Shown in pieces: positions 9,244 through 50,707 of a stretch of DNA of 64,000 nt (positions are counted from its first letter, which is position 1; every line of letters begins with the position of its first letter). The DNA comes from Candidatus Latescibacterota bacterium (lineage in GTDB: Bacteria > Latescibacterota > UBA2968). The notes under the pieces are model-generated. The model saw only the letters and a list, made by a program, of their open reading frames with translations. It searched no databases and was not told the origin of the DNA. Made by a program: the position numbers and the translations under genes. The stretch is from positions 1,344,001-1,408,000 of the forward strand of contig OZ242311.1 in NCBI GenBank assembly GCA_965207885.1, written 5' to 3'.

Positions 9244-10205
9244 GGCGAGAAATAGTGCTTCTTCAAGTTCAAAAACTAAAAAAATACTACCCCATTTCTC
9301 AGGGACTCTGGGGGCGCAACGCCGGGCATGTCAAAGCAGTAGATGACGTGAGCTTCGATATCTCTCCCGGCGAAACCCTCGGCCTGGTCGGCGAATCCGG
9401 ATGCGGAAAAACCACAACGGGACGCGCTATCTTGCGCCTTATTGATGCAACATCAGGCACCGTGCGATTCAAAAATACCGACATCCTCTCCCTGGGAAAA
9501 AAACAACTTCGAACACTGCGCCGGCACATGCAAATCATCTTTCAGGACCCTTACGGATCGCTCAACCCCCGTCTCACCATTGGCGGCATCCTCTCGGAAC
9601 CCCTGAAAATCCACGGCGACAAAACAAAAGATCGAGTCGCCGACCTGCTCAACACCGTGGGCTTATCTCCTGACGTCGCCCGCCGATATCCGCACGAATT
9701 TTCCGGTGGACAGCGACAGCGCATTGGCATTGCCCGCGCATTGGCTGTAAAACCGCAATTCATTGTCGCGGACGAACCCGTGTCTGCACTCGACGTATCG
9801 ATTCAGGCACAAATTGTAAACTTGCTCCAGGATTTACAGACACAGTTCGGCCTCGCCTATCTCTTTATCGCGCACGACCTGAGCGTGGTCAAACACATCT
9901 CCAACCGCGTGGCAGTCATGTACCTGGGCAAAATTGTCGAACTGGCAGAAAGCCAGGAACTCTACGACAATCCGCAGCATCCCTATACACGCGCATTGCT
10001 CTCATCAATCCCCATACCCGACCCGCGCGTCAGGGGATCGCGCACCATTTTAACAGGCGATGTGCCCAGCCCGGTCAACATACCTTCGGGTTGTGCATTT
10101 CATCCGCGCTGTCCCGAAGCAACGCCGGACTGCGCCCACCGCAAACCCGAACTCTTAGACATCGAACCCGGTCACAGCGTGGCCTGTATCTTGCGGCACA
10201 ACTAA
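9228..10205 (+). CDS. oppF: Oligopeptide/dipeptide ABC transporter ATP-binding subunit (start may be GTG 9255)
   Basis: [66 protein letters not shown]. Confidence 0.92.
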
Positions 10206-10253
10206 GGCGCAGAACCCGTGTGCCAACTCACCCACTATTTCAAGGAGTCATAA

Positions 10254-13200
10254 GTGAAGGTCTTCAAAATATTAACGTTGCTGTGCCTCACCGGCCTCAT
10301 ATCCCACACCGTCCAGGCACAGCCCCCCTCTTTAGGTCCCGCCAAAGCCATTGGGGTTGACCTCGCCAATACCCCGCTGAACCGTCCGTCTCCCGATCAG
10401 AAAAGCTACACCTATTGGAAGCCCGAAACAGCCGACGGCTTTTTTCCATCGCTTTTGGGACTGCGTACGGCTGGCGCTCAAATGATCCGCACCAGATATT
10501 TCAATATCTACTTCTCTACAGCCGAAAAAACCGCCCGTCACATTGCCGATTTCTGCGATGAGGTTCTCTCGAATCTCATGCGCCATTACCCCACCTTTGT
10601 CGATCGCATTGCACCCATCCACGTCGTCGTTGACGATCAGGCGGATTATCTGGGCAATGCCTTTGCCGTGTACAGCGCCAATTACATCCACTTTTGGACC
10701 AACCCCATCGACTGGGAAATCCGCGGCACCAGTGACTGGGTACGCAATGTTTTTGTCCATGAACTCGCCCACATCGTAACACTGAAAGCCGCCTATAAGG
10801 GCTTGCCATTCCAAATTGGCATAGTCAACGCCTCTCGCGCCAATGAAAATCCCGATTTCAGCTTTACACTTGGCCTGTATCACCTCGCTGTCAACTCGGG
10901 TTTTGCCGAAGGCATCTCGCAATACGAAGCCACCGAATACGGCGACGACCGCTGGGACACACACCGCGATATGCTCCTGCGCATGGCCGCGCTCGAAAAT
11001 GACTTACTCTCCCTCCCCAGCATGGGGCAACTCGGCGGCAAGGGCAATTTCCACGGCGAAATGGTCTATAATCAGGGATATGCCATGCTCAACTACATTG
11101 GCGAACGCTTTAGTCCGAGTGTCGTCAGACAGATCTTTGAACACAGACCCATTATCAACTTCAACTCCTCGCTCAAAAAAGCCACTGGCGTATCGGCCAA
11201 ACAACTCTACCGCGACTGGAAAGCGCATATCGAAGAACAATACAGCGCAGTTCAAAGCGACATCCAAGAAGCCGGCGAACGCGAAGGCGAATTGATCGTC
11301 GATAGGGGCAATTTGGACTATCACCCGGTCTATTCCCCGCAAGGCGACAAGCTGGGCTTTATCTCCAACGACGACAGCGACTATTTCATCACCGAACTCA
11401 AAGTGATGGATCTCACCACCAAAAAAGTCACAAAAATAGCCGACCGCGTCGATAATCGCTTTGTCTGGACAGCCAGCGGCGACAGCCTGATGTACATCAA
11501 AGCCGTAGGCGCGCGTTGGGACATCTTCACCTATGACATCAAAACGAAAAAAGAAACCCGCGTCACCGTTGGTCTGCGCGGCAAAGACCCCACCCTCTCC
11601 CCCGATGGCAAACAAATCGCCTTTGTAACCATGAGAGATGGCACGGCGAACATCGGCCTTGTAAACACCGACGGCACCGATGTGCGGTACCTCACAAATA
11701 ACAACGACGCCACACAGTATTTTGGCCCAAAATGGTCGCCCGACGGCAAACACCTGCTCTTCAGCATATTCCGCACGGGCGAAGACCGCGACATTGCCAT
11801 CATCGACGTGAATGCCACAACCTGGGAAAAGAAAAAAGGCCGGCGTTCGCTGGAAAAAAAAGAAGTTGACACACAACTCGACAGCCTCCAGCAGGCAAAA
11901 GCCGACAGCCTCAAGGCATTTCCCGACAGCCTCGCCTATGCCAACAATGCCAACTTCAAAGCCATCGTACACTCCACAGCCGACGAACGCGATCCCGTCT
12001 GGCTGCCCGATGGCAGTGGATTTGTCTTCAGTTCGGACCGCACGGGCATCTTCAACCTCTACACCCACGACATGGCCACCGGAGAACAAAAGCAACTGAC
12101 CAATGTTGTGGGCGGCGCGTTTTTGCCCACGATATCCCCCGACGCCAAAGACGTGATCTACGCAGGGTATCATGCAGCGAACTACAACCTCTACCGCATT
12201 CCCCTATCCGAGGCCGTTGCCGTTGATCCCCCCGAGGGTATTGCGCGAGACTATGCCGAAATTTACACCGGCAAATCCATCACCGACCTTCACGACATCG
12301 GAAGGTATTCCACGCGCCTCGTCTCCTACGGCATCACACCCATCGCATTGCTGGGCCCCACATTTATCGGCAACCGATTCGGCCTGGATCAAATCAGCGC
12401 GGGTGTTCAATGGGCCTGGGGCGACCTGCTCGGCAGCGACGTTTTTGTAACCACCGCCCTGATCGGCAAAAACTTCAGACGGCAACAAGACTTCAACTCG
12501 GAATTCGCCTTCTACTACCAGAACAGCCTCACCCCCATTCTATCTGAACAAAGCACCTATGTCCCCCGCATCTTCTTTGGAGGCAGCAGGCAAACCATCA
12601 ACAGCATCGTGGATTTGGGTACCGTCCAAACCGTGCGCGATACACTGACCGGCACATTGATCACTCAAAACGACGAAGGACAACAGGTTTTAATCCCCAA
12701 TGTCACGCAGCACTTAGACCTCACGGTCACAGAAGAAGACGATTTTAAGGATGTATTCTCCGATTTTACGGTAGGCGCCGAAATGGGGGTAGGCCGCGGA
12801 CACTATTTCAGTCTGGCCTATGGCTACCGCAAGTATTCTGAAAACCTGCACGCCGTTCAGGTCCTCCACGACAGCTCTCGCGTCTTTCAGACCAATTTGG
12901 GGACAGGTGAGGTTGAAGACATCACCGATCAGATTCCCGGTCCGGGCTATGCATCGCAGGAAACCCTTCTCGACGATTTTCTCTACAAAGAACTCGACTT
13001 CTTCAAAAGTAACGAATGGATGGGCGGTTGGAGCTACATCACCCTCAAACCCGCCACCGACCTCTACATCAACCCATCGGGCGGTCGCGCATTATCCTTC
13101 CGCTATCGGCGCATCAACGCAACCGTGATAGATTCGCTGGCCCGCACGCCAGATCTGAACGAGGACTTTGTCCCGGATGCAATCGGCGAAGACCTGTCAC

Positions 13201-36815: not shown

Positions 36816-37654
36816 ATGACGTATCCAAATCTAAAGCAGTCTATTTGGCTGCTGGTATTATTGGTCCTGATTAGCGCAGGTTTGGGGATACCGGTTGCGA
36901 TCCTGGGAACGATTATTGACCAGCCGTTACACAAAAGTCCTTATGCTATCTGGCCAGTGACACTGGTGAGTTTTGTTTTGGTCGTACACTATGTTTTGCG
37001 TCGAACCGATCGAACCTGGGCTTCGTGGTCTGATATCATGCCCATAAAAGCCATTTCGTGGCAATTGCTACTGCCACTTGTGGTATCTATCCTTGGATTG
37101 CTGATCGTCTCTCTGGAATTGGGAAAAGTGATGATGTCTTTGGCCCCAACGCCGAGGGGGTGAAGGATACACTCCGTGGGTTGGTCGGCAAAAAAACCTC
37201 TTATTGGTTGGCCTTTTACGGCGCGGTGATTCAAACACCTATCATAGAAGAGGCACTTTTTAGAGGCATTATTGTAGGTGGTTTATTGGCGTATTGGTCA
37301 AAGTATCAGGCCGCAATTTGGTCGGCAATTTTGTTTGGCATATATCACTTGAACCCCGCGCAATTTCCCGTAGCCTTCATATTGGGGCTTGTATTCGCAT
37401 GGTGGATTATTCAAACGAGATCTTTATTACCTTGTATCCTGGGACACGCATTGAACAATTTTCTGGCTATTACATTAGCACGGTCGGGAATACCGGGCTT
37501 TAAAAATCCAAAGGCTCTGATCTTTCTGCCGTGGTGGGTGGTCGTGTGTGCCGTACTATTGGCCGCGATTGGGTTATGGTGGTTTTATCAAATAGCAAAA
37601 CGCGAAGAAACAGAACATCTTGAAGCGGAAGTTGAACCCGAGAGACATTGTTGA
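36816..37654 (+). pseudogene. CPBP/CAAX (Abi) intramembrane metalloprotease, split by a 1-nt frameshift
   Basis: N-terminal TM part (36816..37163) stops at CCGAGGGGGTGA; the overlapping frame continues GVKDTL... with PIIEEALFRG, FGIYH and HALNN CPBP motifs; one extra base near the G5 run (37156-37160) restores a single ORF. Confidence 0.8.
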
Positions 37655-39512: not shown

Positions 39513-42500
39513 ATGTTTGAAAACGGAACGATTCTCGACAACAAATACCAAATCCAAGCGCACCTGGGAACCGGGGGCATGGGCGAAGTCTATCGGGTGT
39601 TAGACCTGGAGCAAGGCCAGGAGTGCGCGCTCAAAATTTTGAATACCATGGTGGATCAGAAGGCTGTGTACCGCCGTTTTCACAGAGAATTTCAAGTATT
39701 GAACAGATTTCAGCACCCGCGCCTGGTGCGCACATACACCTGGGGCTTTGCCGAGGAGCGTCCCTATTTTACAATGGAATATTTGCCCGGAAAGACATTG
39801 GAAAAAATAATTGCCGATCGTACACATTCAGGGCAATTCCGGACGTCTCACTTTTTCGATTTGATACAACAAATTGCTGAAGGGTTGGCTTATATCCACG
39901 CGCAGGGTGCGGTGCACCGCGATCTCAAACCATCCAATATTATGGTTTTGAAAACAGAAAAGGGGATTGAGACCACGATCCTGGATATGGGACTGGCAAA
40001 ACTCAGGCATCTGCATAGCGTTTCCATTACGCAGACGGGCACAGCCATTGGCACGGCAGAATATATGTCGCCAGAGCAGGGTAAGGGCTTGTGGGTGGAC
40101 CATCGGTCAGATCTATACTCATTGGGCATAATTTTATACGAGATGCTCACGGGCGCACCGCCATTTTCTGGACAAAATCCAATATCCGTTATTATGAAGC
40201 ATATTCGAGAGTCACCGCCACCAATAGGTGAAGCCCATGTCGAGATTCCTACCCAGACGCAAGAAATTGTGCTGAGGTTGCTGGCAAAGGAACCTGTTGA
40301 TCGTTATCAGTCAGCAGAGGAATTGTTGCAGACCTTAAATGATGTGGCACCATTGAAGTTTGTGCTATCCGATGACGAGCAGCGCGATGTGCATAGAAAA
40401 GTGATGCGGCCGCAATTTATCGGGCGCGAATCCGAGATGAAGATGTTGCGCACGATGTTGCAGGATGTACAGGCTGGCGAGCAACGTGTGGTTCTGATCT
40501 CCGGTGAGTCTGGTGTGGGAAAAACGAGACTTATTGAGGAACTATTGGGCGATGCTTTGATCCATGATTTTCTGTGTTTGAAAGGGGCGAGCCAGGAAGA
40601 AGGTGGACAAATATACGGTGCGTTGATTGATGCTTTTCAAGGGAAGGTGGATTTGGTGGCAGAGTTACCCGACCCTGCAGAATCGGACAAGTTTTCTGTT
40701 ATGGAGCGTTGGTTGCAATTATTAAAACGTCTGCGACAGAAACAGCCCATTGTGTTGTGTTTGGAAGATATTCAATGGCTTGATGAATTGACCCTGGAAT
40801 TTTTGCAGTATGTATTGCGCGATCCAGAACCCTGCCCATTTTTGTTATACCTGACCTGTCGATGGTCTAACCTGGAACCCCTTCCAAAGGAAATTGAAAA
40901 ATTTATACACAGCAATGAACTTGCTAAGGCGACCCGGATCCAGTTGGAAAATCTACCCCGTGAAGAGGTGGGATATTTAGCGGCGTCCATGTTGGGTGAA
41001 ATATCCATACCACGAGATGCATTACAATCCCTATTCAGAGAAACAGGTGGACAACCCCTGTTTGTGGTGGAGGCTGTGAGGGCACTGGTGAGTGCCGATG
41101 TGGTTCGACAGAATGTGTCTGGCGATTGGCAGTGGGGAGAATTTCCAGAAACTTTGTTATCCAATGATTTTTCAGAGATTTTGTACAGACGTATAGCTAC
41201 TCTGCCTGCGGTACAACAGCGAGTGCTGGAATACGCGTGTGTTTTTCTGAGTGATTTTCCTTTTGAATTATTGGCTGCGGTTTGGCGCAGCGATGAGTTA
41301 GAATTGCTGGATGTACTGGACGAATTGATTGCAGAAGGGCTTTTGACAGCTTGTGGAGAGGATGAAGATCAATATCGATTTTCGCAGGAATTGTGTCGGC
41401 GGGCAATTTATGATCGCATGCAATATGTAAGACGGCGCCTATTACACCGAGAAATTGGCAATGCTTTGGAAAAGACGGAAGATGCAGAAGAACTGACGGA
41501 AGAATTGGCGGATCATTTTGCGGCGGCGGAAGAACGAGATAAAGCTATAAAATATATGCGCCTATCAGGCAAAAAAGCATTGGAAAAACACGCTTATCGC
41601 CAGGCAAGAATGCGGTTTGAGAGTGTCCGAAAGTGGACACCAGATGACGCTTTTGAATCACCTGCAGATACGATCATTTTTTTATGCGATTACGCAAACG
41701 TTTTACGTTGCTGTAGTCAGCACAATAGCGCACTGAAACTTTTAGACGAGGCAAAGGCGTTATTGCCTGCTGATCGCAAAGATTTAAAGGCGCGTATTTT
41801 AAATGACTTGGGTGAGATTCGTAGCGTAACTCATCATGGAGAAATTGCCGAAGAATATATGCTGAAGGCATTACAACTTTATCGTGAACTTGGTGATCTC
41901 GATGGGGAAATTCAGGCATTGGGAATTTTGGCTTATTTGTGCGACGTTTCTGGCCGGCACGAAGAAGCGATTGCATATATGCGTCGAGAAATAGAGAAAC
42001 GTCGTGTGCTGGAAGATCCGCAACAGAACACTTTTATACAAGGGCGGGAAGGTCAAGCTGCATTAATGGGATTTCGATTTGAGATAGCTAAGGGGTACTT
42101 GGAAACTGCTGTAAAGGCCTTTAAGCAACCTGGTCTGGAGCACCATCGCCTTTGGGCACTTAACTTGCTTCCAAGAGTGTATTTTTTTCTGGGTAATCTC
42201 AACCGGGCGGAAGCCATTTGCTATAAAGTCATTGGTGAGTGGCAGAAGCGAGGCGTTGTGTACTCGGAGGCAGTGAATCTTCTCTGGTTGGGAGAATTGG
42301 CACTGGAACGCGGTGATTTTGTCGAGGCATTGGAATATGCCGAGATCTCGATAGAGCGATTTTTGCAAACACCGCGAAAAGATTATGTCTATCGCGCTTA
42401 TGCGATTGCGGCAACGGCTACCGCGGGAATGGAAGATACAGAAGCAGCACTCGAATGGGGAGAAAAAGCCAGTGAAGGTGTACAGCAAACATCGAGCATG

Positions 42501-44333
42501 TACACGGGCATATTACCCTTGGTGCACTGCGGTATTGGTGTTGCTTTCGCCCAGGCAGGGCGGACTGCTGAGGCTGAAGAGGCTTTTAAGCAGGCGATTG
42601 AATGCCGGAGAGAATCCAAAGGCGATCACTGGGCGCGTGCATTGCTGATGGCAGGGGAGTTTTATCTCCAGCGCGATGATATGACAAGAGCTACGGAGTA
42701 TCTCGAAGCGGCAAAACAGGCGTTTGAAGAAATGGAAATGTCCTATTTTTTGGAGAAAACACAGGTGCTATTAAATCAATTATCTCACGACAAAGATGGC
42801 CGCGGCAATAATGTCGCACCCAGTTCTGAGATTTCAGTCGATACGTTGTCTGTTGATCGCTGGCGCTTGCTTTACGATGTGAGTCGGGAATTGACCACAG
42901 AGCGCGATGTCAAAGTGTTGTTGGATCGAACTTTGGGTAATTTACTGGCTGTTTATCCCGCAGAGCGAGTACTTATTGCAGTGAAAAATGAGACTCCAAA
43001 AAGCTTTGTGGTTGATGCAGTCCGTTACCACAATGTAGAAGCAGATGATGCGGAAGCACTGAGTCGGGGTATTATTCGTCGGGTTATTGAGACAAATGAA
43101 CCCATTTTGAGCGTTGATGCACAGGCAGACGACAGGCTAAATCAATATCAGAGCGTGATGGACTACAATATCCGGTCTGTATTGTGCGTATCCCTATTTC
43201 ATGTTAGCGAAGGTGTAATGGGTGCCCTGTATGTGGATCATCGCAGTATTGGCAACGCATTTTCTGAAGCAGATCAGACGTTTTTGCAGGCATTTGCGAA
43301 TCTGGTGGGGGTGGCACTGGTCAATGCGAAGATGTACGAACAATTAGAAGATAAAGCGCGATATTTGCAGCACCAAGTCGAAAGACGGTACCAGCTTGGC
43401 GATCTGGTCGGGCAAAGCGATGCGATGCAGACCATCTACTATCTTATCGAACGCGCTTCACAAAGTGATATACCCGTGCTTGTGCAAGGCGAAACAGGTA
43501 CGGGCAAAGAATTGGCTGCCCGTGCTATACACTACAATAGCAGACGCAAAGACCAGCCATTTTTGTCTCAAAATTGTGCTGCATTTTCGCCAGAGTTGTT
43601 GCAGAGCGAGTTGTTTGGGTACAAAAAAGGCGCATTTACAGGAGCGACTGAAGATCATAAGGGGATTTTTGAGGCGGCCAATGGGGGTACGGTTTTTTTA
43701 GATGAAATCGCCGATGCCTCGCCACAGTTGCAAAGGAGTTTGTTGCGGGTGTTACAAGAAGGAGAGGTGCGGCGTGTGGGAGAAACAGAGGATCGCGCAG
43801 TGGATGTACGCATTATTGCGGCGACCAATCAAGACTTAAAAAAAGAAGTAGAAAACAGATCCTTCCGTGAAGATTTGTATTACCGGTTGCATGTGATTCA
43901 GATCGATATGCCGCCTTTGCGAAAACGCATTGAAGATGTGCCATTATTGGCCGAACATCTGCTCACCCGAACAAAAGAAGAGTCAAACAAGTCGGTTGGA
44001 GGGCTGACAGTGGGTGCAATCAGGGCGCTCACAAGTTATGACTGGCCGGGCAATGTGCGCGAGTTGGAAAATAAGGTTCGACTTGCGGTTACATTGGCAG
44101 AAGAAGGTGGTGAAATCACGTCCGATTTGTTTTCAGAAGCTGTCGGTCACGCGGTGTCAGGTGCCTCTGTCGAATATCAAAAGCGTTTACGAGATCGTGT
44201 TCAGGAATATGAGAAACGGTTGATTATGGATGCGCTCGAGAAATGCGAGGGCAATATTACGCATACGGCTAAAGAACTGAGGATAACGCGTGCTGGCCTA
44301 CAAAAAAAGATCAATCGTTTGGGGTTGAAATAG
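39513..44333 (+). CDS. Hanks Ser/Thr kinase - AAA/STAND-like ATPase - TPR - GAF - sigma54 activator (bEBP) - Fis HTH fusion
   Basis: GTGGMGEV, HRDLKPSN, DMGLA, YMSPEQ; FIGRE..ISGESGVGKT, LEDIQW; helical repeats; GAF (IRSVLCVSL...GALYVD); GETGTGKE, ELFG..KGAFTGA, FLDEI, FREDLYYRL, WPGNVREL; C-terminal HTH. Confidence 0.92.
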   Translation: MFENGTILDNKYQIQAHLGTGGMGEVYRVLDLEQGQECALKILNTMVDQKAVYRRFHREFQVLNRFQHPRLVRTYTWGFAEERPYFTMEYLPGKTLEKIIADRTHSGQFRTSHFFDLIQQIAEGLAYIHAQGAVHRDLKPSNIMVLKTEKGIETTILDMGLAKLRHLHSVSITQTGTAIGTAEYMSPEQGKGLWVDHRSDLYSLGIILYEMLTGAPPFSGQNPISVIMKHIRESPPPIGEAHVEIPTQTQEIVLRLLAKEPVDRYQSAEELLQTLNDVAPLKFVLSDDEQRDVHRKVMRPQFIGRESEMKMLRTMLQDVQAGEQRVVLISGESGVGKTRLIEELLGDALIHDFLCLKGASQEEGGQIYGALIDAFQGKVDLVAELPDPAESDKFSVMERWLQLLKRLRQKQPIVLCLEDIQWLDELTLEFLQYVLRDPEPCPFLLYLTCRWSNLEPLPKEIEKFIHSNELAKATRIQLENLPREEVGYLAASMLGEISIPRDALQSLFRETGGQPLFVVEAVRALVSADVVRQNVSGDWQWGEFPETLLSNDFSEILYRRIATLPAVQQRVLEYACVFLSDFPFELLAAVWRSDELELLDVLDELIAEGLLTACGEDEDQYRFSQELCRRAIYDRMQYVRRRLLHREIGNALEKTEDAEELTEELADHFAAAEERDKAIKYMRLSGKKALEKHAYRQARMRFESVRKWTPDDAFESPADTIIFLCDYANVLRCCSQHNSALKLLDEAKALLPADRKDLKARILNDLGEIRSVTHHGEIAEEYMLKALQLYRELGDLDGEIQALGILAYLCDVSGRHEEAIAYMRREIEKRRVLEDPQQNTFIQGREGQAALMGFRFEIAKGYLETAVKAFKQPGLEHHRLWALNLLPRVYFFLGNLNRAEAICYKVIGEWQKRGVVYSEAVNLLWLGELALERGDFVEALEYAEISIERFLQTPRKDYVYRAYAIAATATAGMEDTEAALEWGEKASEGVQQTSSMYTGILPLVHCGIGVAFAQAGRTAEAEEAFKQAIECRRESKGDHWARALLMAGEFYLQRDDMTRATEYLEAAKQAFEEMEMSYFLEKTQVLLNQLSHDKDGRGNNVAPSSEISVDTLSVDRWRLLYDVSRELTTERDVKVLLDRTLGNLLAVYPAERVLIAVKNETPKSFVVDAVRYHNVEADDAEALSRGIIRRVIETNEPILSVDAQADDRLNQYQSVMDYNIRSVLCVSLFHVSEGVMGALYVDHRSIGNAFSEADQTFLQAFANLVGVALVNAKMYEQLEDKARYLQHQVERRYQLGDLVGQSDAMQTIYYLIERASQSDIPVLVQGETGTGKELAARAIHYNSRRKDQPFLSQNCAAFSPELLQSELFGYKKGAFTGATEDHKGIFEAANGGTVFLDEIADASPQLQRSLLRVLQEGEVRRVGETEDRAVDVRIIAATNQDLKKEVENRSFREDLYYRLHVIQIDMPPLRKRIEDVPLLAEHLLTRTKEESNKSVGGLTVGAIRALTSYDWPGNVRELENKVRLAVTLAEEGGEITSDLFSEAVGHAVSGASVEYQKRLRDRVQEYEKRLIMDALEKCEGNITHTAKELRITRAGLQKKINRLGLK

Positions 44334-44344
44334 ACGTTGAACAG

Positions 44345-44467
44345 GTGCATCCAACTGTATGCAGTAGTGCATCCAACTGTATGCACCTATCTATCCTTAT
44401 ATAATTCAAATAGTTATATTGATTTTCTTTAAATAAACGATTTAGAGGTGCATCCAATTGTATGCAC
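44345..44467. promoter_or_regulatory. Three palindromic upstream activator sites GTGCAT-N8-ATGCA(C/G)
   Basis: GTGCATCCAACTGTATGCAG (44345-44364), GTGCATCCAACTGTATGCAC (44367-44386), GTGCATCCAATTGTATGCAC (44448-44467); the first two are 22 bp apart. Confidence 0.8.
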
Positions 44468-44531
44468 TTTCGCCAGAATTTCCCAAATTTAGCATAAATG
44501 ATTTTTTAATTTTATCTCTTTGCTTTTCAAT

Positions 44532-44560
44532 CACTTGAGCACATTCAAGTGCTTTTTTTT
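44532..44560 (+). terminator. Terminator-like hairpin upstream of sigma54 promoter
   Basis: CACTTGA-GCACAT-TCAAGTG-C-TTTTTTTT. Confidence 0.5.
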
Positions 44561-44576
44561 GTGCTGAGACGATTTT

Positions 44577-44592
44577 GGGCACGGATCTTGCA
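44577..44592 (+). promoter_or_regulatory. Sigma54 (-24/-12) promoter
   Basis: GGGCACGGATCTTGCA compared with consensus TGGCACG-N4-TTGCW; GG (44578-9) and GC (44590-1) are separated by exactly 10 nt. Confidence 0.85.
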
Positions 44593-44647
44593 ATATGGAA
44601 AGGGCAAACAGTTATGGCGCAGGTTTTTTCCATTAAAGGAGGATAAC

Positions 44648-44827
44648 ATGACAACACGACGCAAGTTGACTTTGATTAATGGAGCAATAGATGCGAAAGG
44701 AGATATTCAAATATACCGATTCACGAATAGCCTTGAAATTGGGGGATGTCCATCTGGTTCGCCGGTTGTTCCTCCTGTCCCCTTTCCCGATGATGACGAT
44801 TGGGACGATTTTGAACAGGCTGAGTGA
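44648..44827 (+). CDS. Putative RiPP precursor peptide (59 aa, single Cys, Pro-rich/acidic core)
   Basis: AAGGAGG RBS, ATG 44648; MTTRRKLTLINGAIDAKGDIQIYRFTNSLEIGGCPSGSPVVPPVPFPDDDDWDDFEQAE; lies between the sigma54 promoter and the rSAM gene. Confidence 0.8.
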   Translation: MTTRRKLTLINGAIDAKGDIQIYRFTNSLEIGGCPSGSPVVPPVPFPDDDDWDDFEQAE

Positions 44828-44850
44828 TTTAATTTTAGGGAGTGTTTGAC

Positions 44851-46287
44851 ATGCTGTGCATTCAGAGATGCGAAATGCATCTTTTTCATACTGAAGAGCA
44901 AAAACAGCCGATTGTCTATCAGGTTGAGACTGGTCTGTTTTTTGCACTGGATACTCTTTTTCAGTCGATTTTAGAGTGCTGTGAGGGGATGTCTGCTTCA
45001 CAGGTTGTCCAGAGGTTGACCAATCAATACGAGGCAGAAGAAATTGTCGAGGCCATTGAGGAACTGTCTCAAGTGGGTTTGATTTCGGATGGTGCTTTGC
45101 CCCTAATATCCAATGTGCCGACGACAGAAGGGGTGGCAGCCTGTGGGGTTTCGCAGACAGATCGTTTGCAGGTGTCCTTGCACGTTTCGCATACGTGCAA
45201 TATTCAATGTGCGTATTGCTTTGCCCACGGTGGAGATTATGGCGGTAAGGCCATGCTGATGCAAATAGATGTTGCCGAGCAAGCCATACGCTGGATTGTC
45301 ACCGAGGCTCAGGTATTCGGACGGTGCCAGATTGATTTTTTTGGCGGAGAGCCGCTTCTGAATTTTCCATTGATGCAGGAGCTTGTTCCGTTTGCCAAAT
45401 CCCTATCAGCGCGATTGGGGGTGCAGGTTGGTTTTGGCATTGTGACCAATGGCACGTTGTTGACTGATGAGATGAGGCAATTTTTGGTTGATGAAAATTT
45501 TCAGATTAAGGTCAGCCTGGATGGGGGGCGTAAAACACAGGACCGCATTCGCAAGTTTCACAATGGTTCTGGGACTTATGATGTTGTGGCAAAGAATGTG
45601 GAGAAACTGACTGCTGAGGTGCCTGAGCGCGTGTATTTGCAGGCTGTTATGACAGCTTATGATATGGACGAGGATCAGATTGCCGATGCGTTGCGTTCTC
45701 TGGGTACTGAAAACGCGCTTGTTGGTCCGGCTGTTGTCTCTCCCGATGCGCCTTATGCGATTGGGGAAGAACACATACCCGTTTTGAAGGAACAAATTCA
45801 CAAGCGGAGTAGGCGTGCGCTCAAAGCTATTTTAAGCGGTGAAGAGAGTGAAGATAAAGAGTTTGATCCGCGGATTCAAAAACTTTTGACGCGCCAAAAA
45901 TCCTGTCATGGGTGTCTGGGTGGTAAGCAGTATCTGGCTATTGCAGCAGATGGGTCGATTTATTTTTGCTCGAGTTTGGCCGATGCGCCCGAGTTTAAGA
46001 TGGGTGATGTGTTTGCGGGTATTGATCGCGAAAAGCAGCAGCATTTTGACGCGCAGTTCAATGTGAATAATCGCCCTGAGTGCAAGACGTGCTGGGCGCG
46101 CAACTTATGTGGTGGCGGGTGTCTTTGGGAGGCGCGGACAACAACGGGTGACCCAATGTATCCAAATCCAGTTTCTTGTGAACAGACGCGTTATCGCTAT
46201 GAATTGGCGATGGAGATGTGTATGGAGATTGCAGAAGCGGATGCGTCTTTGTTACAGCGACGATATGATCTGGAAGTGGTATCATAA
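44851..46287 (+). CDS. Radical SAM/SPASM peptide maturase with N-terminal RRE (ranthipeptide CteB/PapB/QhpD-like)
   Basis: N-terminal PqqD-like segment (...EEIVEAIEELSQVGLI); CNIQCAYC; FFGGEPLLN; VTNGTLL; VSLDG; SPASM GCLGG...ADGSIYFC...CKTCWARNLCGGGC...C; ATG 44851 after AGGGAG (alternative GTG 44842). Confidence 0.9.
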   Translation: MLCIQRCEMHLFHTEEQKQPIVYQVETGLFFALDTLFQSILECCEGMSASQVVQRLTNQYEAEEIVEAIEELSQVGLISDGALPLISNVPTTEGVAACGVSQTDRLQVSLHVSHTCNIQCAYCFAHGGDYGGKAMLMQIDVAEQAIRWIVTEAQVFGRCQIDFFGGEPLLNFPLMQELVPFAKSLSARLGVQVGFGIVTNGTLLTDEMRQFLVDENFQIKVSLDGGRKTQDRIRKFHNGSGTYDVVAKNVEKLTAEVPERVYLQAVMTAYDMDEDQIADALRSLGTENALVGPAVVSPDAPYAIGEEHIPVLKEQIHKRSRRALKAILSGEESEDKEFDPRIQKLLTRQKSCHGCLGGKQYLAIAADGSIYFCSSLADAPEFKMGDVFAGIDREKQQHFDAQFNVNNRPECKTCWARNLCGGGCLWEARTTTGDPMYPNPVSCEQTRYRYELAMEMCMEIAEADASLLQRRYDLEVVS

Positions 46288-46404
46288 GCAAAGAAGTTCT
46301 GATGAAAAACTGGTATCCAATACGGCATCCAAATAGGGATTAACACTCTGTTAGATGCCATTTATTTTGTTTCTTTGGGTGGGAGTCTCGACAGATTGTT
46401 GGTG

Positions 46405-47397
46405 ATGGGAGAAATATATCAATCAAAAAAATCCGGCCTCAATAAATGGCCGCTCATTGGACAGCATTCCTCACTCTTAGACGTGCAAAAGCGCGCGTAC
46501 CGCGTGGCAAATAGCGAATTGCCCGTCAACATCAGTGGAGAAACTGGCACGGGTAAGGAATTGCTCGCCCGTTATGTTCACGGCATTAGCCACCGCAACA
46601 GGGGACCATTTGTAACCGTTGACTGCGGTCTGCTCTCTTCTGAAATGTCGCGCAGCGAGTTATTTGGACATGTTCGAGGTGCTTTTACTGGCGCCAGCCA
46701 AACGCGCATCGGACTGGTTGAATCTGCCCAAGGCGGTACGCTATTCCTCGATGAAGTAGGCGAATTGCCTGCCAACCTTCAGTTGCAATTGCTACGCCTG
46801 GTACAGGAACAGGAATTTCGTCGCGTAGGCGAAGCATCCATGCGCCGGTCCAACGTGCGCCTGATCACTGCGACACACTGTAACTTGAAAAAAATGGTGC
46901 GAAAAGGGACTTTCCGAGAAGATCTCTATTACCGCTTAACTGTCGTACCTCTACATTTGCCACCCTTGCGGAAGCGACTGAGCGACTTGCCTCTTTTAAT
47001 CACGCATTTTTGCAAAAGTATGAAAGAATACAATCGCGCATTTTCCCCCGAAGTAATTCAAAGGATGTCGCATTACGCCTGGCCCGGCAATGTTCGGGAA
47101 CTACAACACGAAGTCGCCCGATTGATGGTCATGAGCGAAGGTAAAATTATCCGCGTATCCGATCTGCACCCTCGCATTCGAGGATCCAAAGCCGAGGTCG
47201 ATGTATTTGACCTCCCGTTTAAAGAAGCCAGACAACTGGCGAACAGCCGGTTTATGCGGGAGTATCTCGACAGAGCCTTGAAGCGAACACAGGGCAATGT
47301 AACCCAGGCAGCGCAACAATGCGGGATTGGCCGACAGTATTTCCAATTGCGCATGTCTGAATACGGTCTAAAGTCGGCATCTTACAAACAGAAATAA
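46405..47397 (+). CDS. Stand-alone sigma54-dependent activator (AAA+ and Fis HTH, no sensory domain)
   Basis: GETGTGKE, ELFGHVRGAFTGA, FLDEVGE, FREDLYYRL, WPGNVREL, GNVTQAA; AAA domain begins within about 20 aa of the start. Confidence 0.88.
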   Translation: MGEIYQSKKSGLNKWPLIGQHSSLLDVQKRAYRVANSELPVNISGETGTGKELLARYVHGISHRNRGPFVTVDCGLLSSEMSRSELFGHVRGAFTGASQTRIGLVESAQGGTLFLDEVGELPANLQLQLLRLVQEQEFRRVGEASMRRSNVRLITATHCNLKKMVRKGTFREDLYYRLTVVPLHLPPLRKRLSDLPLLITHFCKSMKEYNRAFSPEVIQRMSHYAWPGNVRELQHEVARLMVMSEGKIIRVSDLHPRIRGSKAEVDVFDLPFKEARQLANSRFMREYLDRALKRTQGNVTQAAQQCGIGRQYFQLRMSEYGLKSASYKQK

Positions 47398-47476
47398 TAC
47401 CTCACGGTGTACTAAAAAAACGTCAATGGAAAAATCCATTGACGTTTTTCTTTGCAGGGTGTTTCTTGAGCGTATC

Positions 47477-50400
47477 ATGCAATACATCGCCGACATACAC
47501 CTGCACTCGCGTTTTGCCCGCGCAACCAGCAAAACCCTGAACCCCGAAAACCTGTATCGGTGGAGCCTCATCAAAGGCCTGACAGTAGTAGGCACCGGAG
47601 ATTTCACCCATCCGGTATGGTTTGACGAACTGCGCGATCAACTCGAACCCGCCGAAGAAGGGCTATATCAACTGCGATCAGACCTCAGGCGAGGTATAGA
47701 CGCCGAGTTGCCACAAGCCTGTCGCGGACAAATGCGGTTTGTGCTCTCGGTCGAAATCAGTCTCATATACAAAAAGAACGACAAAACCAGAAAAATACAT
47801 CACGTCGTCACAATGCCGAGTTTTGACGCTGCGGCGCGATTAAATGCCCGACTCGGCGCAATAGGCAACCTGAAATCCGACGGACGCCCCATTCTTGGCC
47901 TGGACAGCCGGGACCTGGTAGAGATCTGTCTGGAAGCCTGTGACGAGGTACTCTTCATACCCGCGCACATCTGGACCCCTCATTTTGCTGTCCTGGGCGC
48001 GAGTTCCGGGTTTGACACCCTGGAAGAATGTTTTGAAGACATGCTCCCCCACATCTTCGCCGTAGAAACCGGCCTATCCTCCGACCCACCGATGAACTGG
48101 CGCCTATCCATGCTGGACAACTACGCAATCGTCTCCAATTCAGACGCGCATTCCCCACAAAAACTCGCCCGCGAAGCCACCTGCTTTAACACAGACCTAT
48201 CATTCCGCGGAATGTATAACGCATTAAAAGACCGCGACCCAACGCGCTTTACGGGCACCCTGGAATTCTATCCCGAAGAAGGCAAATATCACTTTGACGG
48301 ACACAGAAAATGCGACATATGCTGGAAACCCGTACAAACCCTCGACGCAGACGAAATCTGCCCGGTATGTGGCCGCAAATTGACCGTTGGCGTACTCCAC
48401 CGCGTTGAAAAACTCGCAGACCGCGCAGAAGGCGACCGCCCCGACGTGGTAATGCCCTTTGAAAACCTGATCCCACTGCCGGAAATCATCGGCTCAGTCC
48501 TCCAGGTGGGACCCACCAGCAAGCGCGTACAAACCGTGTACGAACAAATGCTATCAACACACGGAGCAGAATTGAAAATCTTGCGCGAACTGCCCATCGA
48601 AGAAATCGCCAAAACAGGAGACTTCCTCATCGCCGAAGGCATTCGACGCATGCGCGAAGGGGAAGTTCACATAGACCCGGGATACGACGGCGTGTACGGA
48701 AAAATTCAAGTCTTCTCCGACGAAGACCGCGCACGCCTGAGCGGGCAGGAAACGCTGTTTCACATACCAGCCGGGGAGCCTTCGAAAGAGAAAGCAGAGA
48801 ACGCGAGCCTGGACAAGAGCACAGAAAACTCAATAGCCAAAGATTCTTCTTTCACACTTCCCACTTCACTCTTCCCACTTCTCGACCCCCACCAGCAAGC
48901 AGCCGTAACAACGGAAAAAGGTCCCGTCATCGTAACAGCGGGACCCGGCACCGGAAAAACCCGGGTCCTCACCCATCGCGTAATCGACTTGATCCAAAAC
49001 CGCGGCGTATCACCCGCTTCTGTGATGGCCGTAACATTCACCAATCGCGCCGCAACTGAAATGTGGGAACGGATCGTATCCCTATCCTCAGGAGGCGAAG
49101 AACTGGTCCCCATGCGCGTGGGCACATTCCACCGCCTATCACTGGACCTCCTGCGAGAATACGCCCCCGAGCGAATGGGCGCAATAGCTGACCGAGGAGA
49201 AGCCCGCACCGTCTTACAGGAAGCAATCGCCGACATCGACACCGAAACATCGGTCGATGACGCCCTCTCCCAAATCTCGCTATGCAAAGCTACAGGACAG
49301 GAAATACCCGACATCACCGACACCGAACTCCAAACCATTTACACCAATTATCAACATCGCCTCACCACTTATGGCCTGATGGACTTTGACGACATCTTAC
49401 TCATACTCCACGACGTACTCTCCGGTGACATTTTACAAACAATCCAGGCGCGATTTACCCACGTACTCGTCGATGAATTTCAGGACGTCAACGCCGTACA
49501 GTACGCACTGATTCAAAAACTGTCCGGAGATGGATCGGGCCTCTTCGTCATCGGCGATCCCGATCAAGCCATCTACGGTTTTCGGGGCGCGAGCGCGGGA
49601 TATTTCGCGCAATTAAAAGCGGATTATCCCGGATCAAACGAAGTAATCCTGCAGCACACATATCGCTCCACCCCACAGATCATCTCCGCAGCATCCAGCC
49701 TGCTTCGCGGACGATCGTATGTCCCCGTGCGAGAAAATGGCCCAAATCTGAGAGCCTTATCCACACCGGGCGAAACCGGCGAAGGCATCGCCATCGTAGA
49801 AGAAATCTCCCGAATGGTCGGCGGTGCAGACTTATTGCAAGCCAACGAAGAAGGCAAACGCAGCCTGGACGACTTCGCCGTATTATTCCGTACCGGACGA
49901 CAAGCAGACGCCCTGGAAACGTGCTTCTTACAGGCCGGGATCCCCTACCGCGTCGTCGGGCAGAAAAGCTATCTGGACGCAGCTTCGGTACAGCACGCCC
50001 TATCGTTTTTTAAGTGCGTCCTGAGAGATATTTCCAGTGCCCCAACCACCAGAGATATAATCGACCTCCTCTCCATCCCCGCATTTGACCCTGGCAGAGA
50101 AGCGCGCGCAACAATGCGTCGTCAGGCTCAAAACACCGCGCTATCTGACACTGTACAGGAAAAATTGGACGCCGCGATGGAAGCCGTAGATCGCTTCCGC
50201 AATGAAACATCTCACCTATCGCCTTCCGAACGCATAGCAAAATGGGCAGAAGAATTTGCGACATCAGACGACATCGACATCGAACGACTGAGCCTGTTGG
50301 CTCAAGGCGTGGATTCCATCGCAGAGCTATTGGAAATCATCACCCTGGGACAGGATGGCGACTTTGTGCGTCGTGGAAAAATTGCGCGGCCCGAAGCCGT

Positions 50401-50707
50401 CACACTCATGACCTTGCATGCGTCCAAGGGCCTGGAATTCCCCGTGGTATTTATCTGTGGGGTTGAGGAAGGATTAATCCCGCACGCCAATGCGGATATC
50501 GAAGAAGAGAAACGCCTATTTTTCGTCGGCATAACCCGCGGACAAGACGAAGTGATCTTGACCCGCGCCCGAAGCCGCAGGCGATTTGGCGAACGCATCG
50601 CGCCCAAAATATCGCGCTTTGTAGCCGACATCCCCGAAGAAGTGATCGACTTTGTCGATCTGCGAACCGAAAGACGCAAACCCGCCGAACAACTATCCTT
50701 ATTTTAA
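47477..50707 (+). CDS. Endonuclease Q (PHP) domain fused to UvrD/PcrA-like SF1 helicase
   Basis: ADIHLHSRF..ATSK, GTGDFTHP, PAHIWTP, SNSDAHS, EGKYH.DGHRKC, CPVCG...TVGV; then AGPGTGKT, TFTN.AA, VDEFQD, IGDPDQAIYGFRGA, YRS, TLHASKGLEF, EEKRLFFVGITR; ATG 47477. Confidence 0.9.
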   Translation: MQYIADIHLHSRFARATSKTLNPENLYRWSLIKGLTVVGTGDFTHPVWFDELRDQLEPAEEGLYQLRSDLRRGIDAELPQACRGQMRFVLSVEISLIYKKNDKTRKIHHVVTMPSFDAAARLNARLGAIGNLKSDGRPILGLDSRDLVEICLEACDEVLFIPAHIWTPHFAVLGASSGFDTLEECFEDMLPHIFAVETGLSSDPPMNWRLSMLDNYAIVSNSDAHSPQKLAREATCFNTDLSFRGMYNALKDRDPTRFTGTLEFYPEEGKYHFDGHRKCDICWKPVQTLDADEICPVCGRKLTVGVLHRVEKLADRAEGDRPDVVMPFENLIPLPEIIGSVLQVGPTSKRVQTVYEQMLSTHGAELKILRELPIEEIAKTGDFLIAEGIRRMREGEVHIDPGYDGVYGKIQVFSDEDRARLSGQETLFHIPAGEPSKEKAENASLDKSTENSIAKDSSFTLPTSLFPLLDPHQQAAVTTEKGPVIVTAGPGTGKTRVLTHRVIDLIQNRGVSPASVMAVTFTNRAATEMWERIVSLSSGGEELVPMRVGTFHRLSLDLLREYAPERMGAIADRGEARTVLQEAIADIDTETSVDDALSQISLCKATGQEIPDITDTELQTIYTNYQHRLTTYGLMDFDDILLILHDVLSGDILQTIQARFTHVLVDEFQDVNAVQYALIQKLSGDGSGLFVIGDPDQAIYGFRGASAGYFAQLKADYPGSNEVILQHTYRSTPQIISAASSLLRGRSYVPVRENGPNLRALSTPGETGEGIAIVEEISRMVGGADLLQANEEGKRSLDDFAVLFRTGRQADALETCFLQAGIPYRVVGQKSYLDAASVQHALSFFKCVLRDISSAPTTRDIIDLLSIPAFDPGREARATMRRQAQNTALSDTVQEKLDAAMEAVDRFRNETSHLSPSERIAKWAEEFATSDDIDIERLSLLAQGVDSIAELLEIITLGQDGDFVRRGKIARPEAVTLMTLHASKGLEFPVVFICGVEEGLIPHANADIEEEKRLFFVGITRGQDEVILTRARSRRRFGERIAPKISRFVADIPEEVIDFVDLRTERRKPAEQLSLF

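Follow-up and report, generated by a model that had tools for sequence, protein, structure and literature searches.

A sigma-54-associated gene cassette for a single-cysteine peptide and a radical SAM/SPASM maturase in a sponge-associated Latescibacterota bacterium, proposed to yield a thioether macrocycle

The window analyzed in this work is a stretch of 64,000 nucleotides from the genome of a Candidatus Latescibacterota bacterium (contig OZ242311.1, positions 1,344,001 to 1,408,000 of the forward strand; all positions below are counted from its first letter), and our subject is a pair of adjacent genes that appears to encode a peptide synthesized by the ribosome and modified after translation (RiPP) and the enzyme that matures it. 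The precursor gene (44648..44827, plus strand) was recognized from the open reading frame (ORF) call and its conservation across relatives, and encodes 59 amino acids. The maturase gene (44851..46287, plus strand), assigned from Pfam and NCBIfam models and from its alignment with CteB, encodes a 478-residue radical S-adenosylmethionine (SAM) enzyme with an N-terminal peptide-recognition region (RRE) and a C-terminal SPASM region. It starts with the ATG at 44851, 23 nt past the precursor stop, with a GTG at 44842 as the alternative start, and ends with the stop codon at 46287. A strong ribosome-binding site, AGGAGG (44637..44642, plus strand), is located 5 nt ahead of the ATG of the precursor. 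An earlier note on this DNA had described a 59-residue ORF with a perfect ribosome-binding site directly ahead of a CteB/PapB-like radical SAM gene and had proposed a new RiPP-type pair; the description is accurate, and the proposal holds in the sense that the pair is unnamed, with no cut-off of a named class reached.

The pair recurs well beyond this locus. The genome, which is contained in one contig of 6.23 Mb, carries the peptide gene three times, at 68-100% identity, and each copy is followed by a maturase gene whose product is 92-100% identical to the others. In a search of the phylum (E <= 1e-80), the maturase was present in 25 of 168 Latescibacterota genomes; these include 15 of the 20 others that belong to the genus of the window, with 1-3 copies apiece. 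The presence of small ORFs beside maturase homologues had been set beforehand as a check, and such an ORF precedes the maturase at all close homologues: it is in the same position at 21/21 distinct loci of the genus and at every intact locus examined in four clades, despite the divergence of the cores. AGGAG(G/A) precedes every listed precursor gene. In a large protein collection we found 101 precursor clusters of 53-83 residues (clustered at 90% identity, E <= 1e-9). Residues K6, L7, L9, N11, G12, I20, P45, F46, and P47 are invariant among 20 distinct genes, yet each is written with two to three synonymous codons, which indicates that selection acts on the peptide at the protein level. On these sequence comparisons, the small ORF and the radical SAM gene are a real, conserved gene pair.

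No Pfam or NCBIfam model matches the precursor, and the ESM Atlas gave no usable match for it; a profile scan of genome contigs returned three family loci among the 80 loci listed, and when metagenome contigs were scanned with the alignment of the family, the matches listed were SCIFF-type maturases at about 30% identity, with no family member among them. One locus (L119, G071:C1, 8366-9355) holds a 329-residue maturase remnant that lacks the N-terminal part and is probably a pseudogene. The public phylum labels of the relatives conflict, several proteins from metagenome-assembled genomes (MAGs) being labeled Gemmatimonadota or Gemmatimonadetes and others Latescibacteria or Latescibacterota.

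The precursor has a clear modular layout: a leader of approximately residues 1-33, Cys34, a hypervariable segment (35-40), an invariant V41-P42-x-x-P45-F46-P47 block, a run of Asp (48-51), and an acidic tail. In the peptide of the window, Cys34 is the only cysteine, as had been claimed for its core, and after it come P-S-G-S-P-V, V-P-P-V-P-F-P, four Asp residues, W-D-D-F, and an acidic terminus. The leader motif M-x-T-R-R-K-L-T-L-I-N-G is well conserved in an alignment of 86 of the 101 precursors, from which 15 with odd ends were left out. All 101 contain C-x(5-6)-[VI]P-x-x-PFP, three or more Asp stand in a row in 99, and the number of Cys is exactly one in 85. Between the Cys and the VP, the spacer is six residues long in 99 precursors and five in the other two, while its sequence is hypervariable, with 81 distinct versions among the 101. 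A length that is fixed although the sequences differ fits a ruler or ring constraint on this segment, as far as sequence variation can suggest one. The six-residue loops open with C-x-P in 72 of 99 cases, and Asp stands at +4 (C-x3-D) in 14 of 99. Two of the cross-link sites considered in the earlier note fare poorly against these data: Ser38, proposed as the partner of Cys34, sits within the hypervariable loop, and Trp52, proposed as the site of a cyclophane, is missing in 13 of 101 precursors, where Arg mostly takes its place, and is also replaced at locus L087, so that it cannot be the defining site.

The more distant clades keep the I/V-N-G of the leader and one Cys, but their cores are different: C-x-W-P-x-F-P-x-L-P-P-P in the next clade (nine sequences), L-S-C-[DY]-P...[FY]-P... 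in another (two sequences, one of them frameshifted), and P-S-L-S-C-S-Y-N-G-H-N-F in a single sequence. The Cys is common to the cores of all clades, and an aromatic-Pro motif to all except the P-S-L-S-C core. A search for relatives of the next-clade precursor yielded four proteins only. At the locus L103/L117 (G037:C2), a frameshift between leader and core splits the precursor. We also considered a conserved polar acceptor 13-14 residues past the Cys, namely Asp in the genus and Thr or Ser elsewhere, and rejected it when P0372 proved to have Lys there.

The leader had been described as SCIFF-like. To evaluate this, the profile of 20 distinct precursors of the genus was compared by hhalign with that of 39 SCIFF precursors taken from 77 SCIFF-maturase loci, which gave a probability of 3% over 12 columns and recovered only the S-x-E-x-G-G-C junction; the SCIFF precursor model TIGR03973 does not match our precursor at E <= 1. 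The resemblance is thus, at the level of sequence profiles, one of a junction motif and not a demonstrable homology.

Pfam recognizes Radical_SAM, Fer4_12, and SPASM domains in the maturase, together with PqqD/RRE at residues 22-75, the last a weak match (19.8 bits, under the gathering score of 23.4). We place the N-terminal RRE at approximately residues 20-90 (44908..45120, plus strand) based on this weak match, on the alignment with the N-terminal domain of CteB from residue 20, and on the complex model described below. The radical SAM cluster motif C116-x3-C120-x2-C123 (45196..45219, plus strand) aligns with C104/C108/C111 of CteB, and in the SPASM region (45904..46179, plus strand) C355, C373, and C424 correspond to the ligands of auxiliary cluster 1 (AC1), and C411, C414, C420, and C443 to those of auxiliary cluster 2 (AC2). 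These ten cysteines are invariant in 41/41 family sequences (the window protein and 40 of its 51 closest matches, 11 fragments or short-contig entries having been left out) and align one to one with the ligands of CteB, whose roles are assigned in passages of PMC10177961 as C104/108/111 for the radical SAM cluster, C344/362/413 for AC1, and C400/403/409/432 for AC2. CteB (5WGG/5WHY) is also the closest solved structure, with an E value of 4e-62 over residues 20-454; the structures of the anaerobic sulfatase maturase (anSME) align over residues 112-251 only.

The family has one further cysteine that these ligand sets do not include. C352, in the sequence C352-H-G-C355 (window 45904-45915), lies three residues ahead of the first AC1 ligand and is present in 30 of the 41 family enzymes, while a Cys within six residues upstream of the first SPASM cysteine occurs in only two of 184 parsed neighbors, one of which is a misparse. 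From its position, C352 could be a fourth ligand of AC1. Passages of PMC10177961 on PapB and Tte1186 present the open iron site of AC1 as the place thought to take the thiol of the substrate, a role supposed for it in CteB as well. The C-H-G-C variant of AC1 allows this model of thioether formation to be tested in a natural enzyme.

Concerning its placement, the best NCBIfam matches of the maturase all describe enzymes that form Cys thioethers, and none reaches its cut-off: the SCIFF maturase TIGR03974 gives 266.7 bits (cut-off 425), QhpD TIGR03906 263.9 (453), the Nif11-type model 250.8 (518.7), and PapB NF047865, whose C-x3-D repeat is absent from our precursor, 229.1 (340). The anaerobic sulfatase maturase model TIGR03942 gives 112.8 bits (349.45), and the cyclophane formers YhhB NF041707 and FxsB TIGR04269 give 88.3 (445) and 73.4 (370), also without reaching their cut-offs. 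The earlier expectation that the enzyme would group neither with the sulfatase maturases nor with a named class is borne out by these values. Scores against TIGR03974 are 242-279 bits for P0006, P0222, and P0223 of the family, and none of 18 top representatives reaches a curated cut-off. Sequence identity of the matches drops from 40-93% to at most 33%, the latter being SCIFF maturases. When 1.84 billion representatives were searched with the profile, four scored 482-797 bits, after which a continuum set in at 393 bits; 5586 representatives have E <= 1e-30. In a FastTree phylogeny the family groups as a single clade (SH-like support 100, branch length 0.51) separate from the SCIFF-labeled clade; this is a quick method applied to half of the rows (21 of the 41 family sequences plus two representatives, 63 of 126 neighbors, and eight SCIFF-labeled sequences). 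Of the general features of thioether RiPPs, the family has C-x3-C-x2-C, a seven-Cys SPASM region for two auxiliary clusters, and a conserved donor Cys in the core. These sequence relationships place the enzyme with the thioether formers of the CteB/SCIFF/QhpD/PapB group, as a clade of its own.

The association of the two products was also modeled, with the maturase alignment, the precursor alignment, SAM, and three 4Fe-4S clusters as inputs. The predicted complexes have ipSAE values of 0.87, 0.87, and 0.86, compared with 0.00 for the best of three controls; in the calibration of this score, 58 of 80 solved complexes and two of 110 mismatched pairs reach the mark. Agreement between the runs is at least 60% of contacts, with a partner pLDDT of at least 49. 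In the model, residues 5-14 of the leader pair with residues 28-34 of the enzyme, and residues 39-43 of the peptide lie near C355, C373, and C424. The prediction supports the binding of the leader to the RRE without showing it.

Upstream of the pair, on the same strand, lies a giant regulator gene (39513..44333, plus strand). Its product of 1606 residues comprises a Ser/Thr kinase (Pkinase, 12-273), a STAND-type NTPase (AAA_16, 301-440), TPR repeats (approximately 850-1072), a GAF domain (1134-1269), a sigma-54 AAA+ activator domain (Sigma54_activat, 1298-1464), and a Fis-type helix-turn-helix (HTH_8, 1565-1602). The same architecture of about 1600 residues is found directly upstream of the precursor in the three copies of this genome and in the next clade. 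The three paralogous regulators are 66-96% identical per bin of 100 residues, with the lowest values in the TPR part, and the N-terminal part gives 288 bits against TIGR03903, the TOMM kinase/cyclase protein, under its cut-off of 705.75. Between the regulator gene and the peptide gene we find, as a consensus match, a terminator-like hairpin with a T run (44532..44554, plus strand) and then, as a motif match, a putative sigma-54 (-24/-12) promoter, GGGCACGGATCTTGCA (44577..44592, plus strand), 71 nt ahead of the precursor ATG.

The promoter motif lies at -58 to -80 from the ATG in 21/21 distinct places of the genus and occurs as GGTAC/GGCAT variants in 6/6 places of the next clade, while it was not found in the three places of the most distant clades that we examined, which gives 27/30 overall. 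The genome encodes rpoN (424 bits, cut-off 277), and the exact consensus TGGCACG-N4-TTGCW occurs at 26 sites in it compared with two for the reversed control. These numbers, together with the fact that several sites have the spacer GGATA in common, suggest a sizeable sigma-54 regulon.

The genes downstream differ among the three cassettes of the genome, and the conserved unit consists therefore of activator, promoter, precursor, and maturase; a comparison of the three revealed no peptidase or exporter within it. The same had been stated earlier for the transcript in the window, and correctly: the maturase gene is followed by a sensor-less sigma-54 activator gene (46375..47397, plus strand; 340 residues, AAA+ and HTH only) and then by a gene for a UvrD-type helicase (47426-50707, plus strand). 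The small activator was considered as a member of the cassette and dropped, being only 41% identical to the C-terminus of the giant regulator and absent from the two paralogous loci. The UvrD-type protein has 1093 residues, with helicase domains only in 486-1048 and no Pfam match at E <= 0.001 in its first 480 or so. Two genes upstream of the regulator gene lies one for an Rce1-like (CAAX/CPBP) intramembrane protease (37058-37654, plus strand). Such proteases often accompany peptide systems; none was seen at the paralogous loci, and this one was not retained as a cassette member either.

The other two cassettes of the genome, L114 (G000:C1:5327000-5345000) and L115 (G000:C1:1879000-1897000), are flanked by ORFs that we take to be insertion sequence (IS) transposases from an inspection of their N-termini by eye, and their downstream neighbors, of 235 and 302 residues, have no Pfam match. 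Elsewhere, the L103/L117 cassette also encodes an RRE-like protein whose heptosyltransferase match is weak (37.5 bits) and a second, weaker radical SAM/SPASM protein past the maturase. In the next clade, at L118 (G050:C15), a second and more divergent radical SAM/SPASM gene (9897-11378; 194.9 bits against the QhpD model) follows the maturase gene, with glycosyltransferase-like ORFs past it.

The host is sponge-associated. Sequencing runs that carry the label sponge or marine metagenome contain 0.27-0.42 of the sampled words of the stretch. In two studies, sponge RNA libraries contain contigs that cover the maturase gene, and one of these contigs (run X18, record 3) spans 44720-45190, from the 3' end of the precursor gene into the maturase gene, which is compatible with co-transcription. 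The RNA-library contigs leave 44170-44571 bare and barely cover the 5' part of the precursor gene, a pattern that is neutral on co-transcription.

Taken together, the observations extend the earlier note by the giant regulator, the sigma-54 promoter, the three cassettes, the hypervariable loop of fixed length, and C352, and we propose that the locus is a self-contained RiPP cassette under sigma-54 control that makes a single Cys34 thioether macrocycle. In this proposal, the kinase-STAND-TPR-GAF enhancer-binding protein of 1606 residues would sense a cue and activate the sigma-54 RNA polymerase at 44577-44592, and the resulting transcript would carry the precursor of 59 residues and the maturase. 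The R-K-L-T-L-I-N-G of the leader (residues 5-14) would add a strand to the N-terminal RRE of the maturase, one residue of the invariant V-P-x-x-P-F-P-Asp block would lose a hydrogen to the 5'-deoxyadenosyl radical, and the sulfur of C34 would close a single thioether ring around the six-residue variable loop. Later processing or export, if any, would fall to unlinked genes. We infer the transcriptional activation, the formation of the thioether, the identity of the acceptor residue, and the unlinked processing or export from the arrangement of the parts.

The thioether is favored by the kinship of the enzyme, the invariant lone Cys, and the fixed spacing, and we regard it as the probable product, with appreciable room for doubt. 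Several considerations weigh against it. No acceptor residue is conserved across the clades, the Asp run being limited to the genus of the window, and C352, if it acts as a ligand of AC1, could close the open iron site supposed to take the thiol of the substrate; these two points in particular keep our confidence from being higher. The maturase scores under every curated NCBIfam cut-off. The complex model does not place C34 confidently and, since a CteB-peptide complex has already been solved, its passing of the calibration mark may reflect mere likeness to that complex. The contigs from sponge RNA libraries may stem from DNA carry-over, and contigs cannot rank expression. The proposal is based on sequence and modeling.

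If sulfur were not involved, the maturase could instead form a carbon-carbon, cyclophane-type or other cross-link at F46-P47-x48, with Cys34 serving as a cluster ligand or anchor or having no part in the reaction. SPASM enzymes of other clades make three-residue cyclophanes, and besides the Cys, an aromatic-Pro is the sole motif common to three of the four clades: P-F-P occurs in 101/101 precursors of the genus, W-P-x-F-P in the next clade, and [FY]-P in g12/g13, and position x48 always offers a beta-CH (D, N, or A in the genus and I, L, or V in other clades). However, the g3 candidate (L105) has no aromatic-Pro, Trp52 as the other candidate ring is missing in the 13 precursors mentioned above, and the families of cyclophane formers score 88.3 (YhhB) and 73.4 (FxsB) bits where the thioether families score 229-267; a cross-link of this kind would also leave the invariance of the Cys and its fixed distance to the VP unexplained, and we consider it unlikely. 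The extra C352 invites a different alternative, in which the Cys is altered without any cross-link, for instance to a formylglycine-like aldehyde, by an enzyme whose AC1 is fully ligated by cysteines. The first auxiliary cluster of anSME is fully ligated, the motif recognized in sulfatases is C-x-P-x-R, and both have a counterpart here, the former in C352-x2-C355, an eighth cysteine of the SPASM region in 30 of 41 enzymes and almost unseen in neighbors, and the latter, loosely, in the C-x-P with which 72 of 99 six-residue loops begin. The likeness to sulfatases is not general, because the clade with C-x-W-P carries C352 as well, and there is no Arg at +4 of the kind found in sulfatases; the anSME model stops at 112.8 bits of the 349 needed, and the anSME structures align over the short range of 112-251. 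A modification of the Cys alone thus appears to us distinctly improbable.

Two further explanations concern the pair as a whole. The locus could be a plain member of a named family, whether SCIFF, the PapB-type ranthipeptides, or QhpC/QhpD, with nothing new in it; these families do provide the top hidden Markov model matches, and rules of the antiSMASH type already label clusters in Latescibacterota MAGs as ranthipeptide, according to passages of PMC12993501. Yet the cut-offs are missed widely (266.7 against 425, 263.9 against 453, and 229.1 against 340 bits), the precursor has no Pfam or NCBIfam match, the tree separates the clade with a support of 100, and only the four representatives at 482-797 bits precede the continuum at 393 bits, all of which leaves this explanation with hardly any credibility. 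It could also be that the small ORF is not a substrate, that its pairing with the maturase is merely positional, and that the peptide acts alone, for example as a small acidic regulator, a role for which the acidic aromatic tail could serve as a protein-binding motif. That the ORF precedes the maturase at every intact locus in four clades, despite the divergence of the core, and that the complex model sets the leader on the RRE with 0.87 against 0.00 for the best control, make this very improbable.

A broader and more speculative possibility combines the regulator, the paralogs, and C352 in an autoregulatory peptide-signaling circuit. In it, the TPR/GAF part of the regulator would detect its own cyclized peptide by way of, or together with, the acidic aromatic tail, either inside the cell or after release; the 2-3 paralogous cassettes per genome, with their different hypervariable loops, would be separate channels or "pherotypes" of sponge symbionts; and a fully ligated AC1, completed by C352, would form the thioether, or another product, by a mechanism unlike those of CteB and PapB. 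For all three parts to hold jointly seems to us improbable.

Should the thioether chemistry be confirmed, the family would be ranthipeptide- or sactipeptide-like with a minimal single-Cys design and a Pro-rich ring of fixed size and free sequence, and it would offer both a useful natural scaffold and a simple substrate with which to ask how a SPASM enzyme selects its acceptor. The fixed coupling of the pair to a kinase-STAND-TPR-GAF sigma-54 activator, in several copies within an uncultured sponge symbiont, provides in addition a handle on the purpose of such peptides.

Among known systems, the closest in design are CteB/CteA and Tte1186/Tte1186a of the SCIFF systems, in the ranthipeptide class (PDB 5WGG/5WHY for CteB). 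They combine an RRE with radical SAM and SPASM domains in which the cysteines of all three clusters align with ours, their precursor gene lies directly upstream, G-G-C stands at the junction of leader and core, and the leader of the window precursor is predicted by the complex model to bind the RRE as a strand; Tte1186 also makes a single cross-link, according to passages of PMC10177961. The differences are nonetheless considerable, since SCIFF maturases are only about 30-33% identical to the window maturase, which remains at 266.7 bits where the SCIFF model demands 425, SCIFF precursors have six Cys in about 45 residues as opposed to one Cys in a Pro/Asp-rich core, with undetectable homology of the leaders, and our family differs from CteB and Tte1186 by the extra C352, by its connection to sigma-54 and a giant activator, and by its 2-3 copies per genome. 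PapB/PapA (freyrasin) likewise involves a thioether-forming SPASM enzyme, and the Asp that passages of PMC10177961 describe as the acceptor of its Cys cross-links has a possible parallel in the Asp run kept by the genus of the window; PapA, however, has six C-x3-D units, whereas here only 14 of 99 six-residue loops show C-x3-D, and the Asp run that is conserved lies 14 residues past the Cys. QhpD, with its substrate QhpC, provides the second-best model for the window maturase (263.9 bits) and forms thioethers, both Cys-Asp and Cys-Glu, whose rings span several residues, as described in passages of PMC13692751, but the substrate here is a one-Cys peptide of 59 residues, and no dehydrogenase genes are visible among the listed neighbors. 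With respect to the regulator, the TOMM/NHLP systems with TIGR03903 also place a giant protein of Ser/Thr kinase, NTPase, and TPR parts beside a RiPP cassette; their output is a cyclase instead of GAF, sigma-54 activator, and HTH, and their RiPP chemistry is another one. Our search of the literature revealed no description of this precursor and maturase family, although supplementary tables of RiPP surveys might list it, and passages of PMC12993501 report generic antiSMASH calls of "ranthipeptide" and "RRE" in sponge Latescibacterota MAGs. What is familiar in the locus is the type of enzyme and the logic of the system, while the precursor family, the single-Cys Pro/Asp-rich design, the C-H-G-C site, the wiring to a giant activator, and the multiple copies with hypervariable loops are new.

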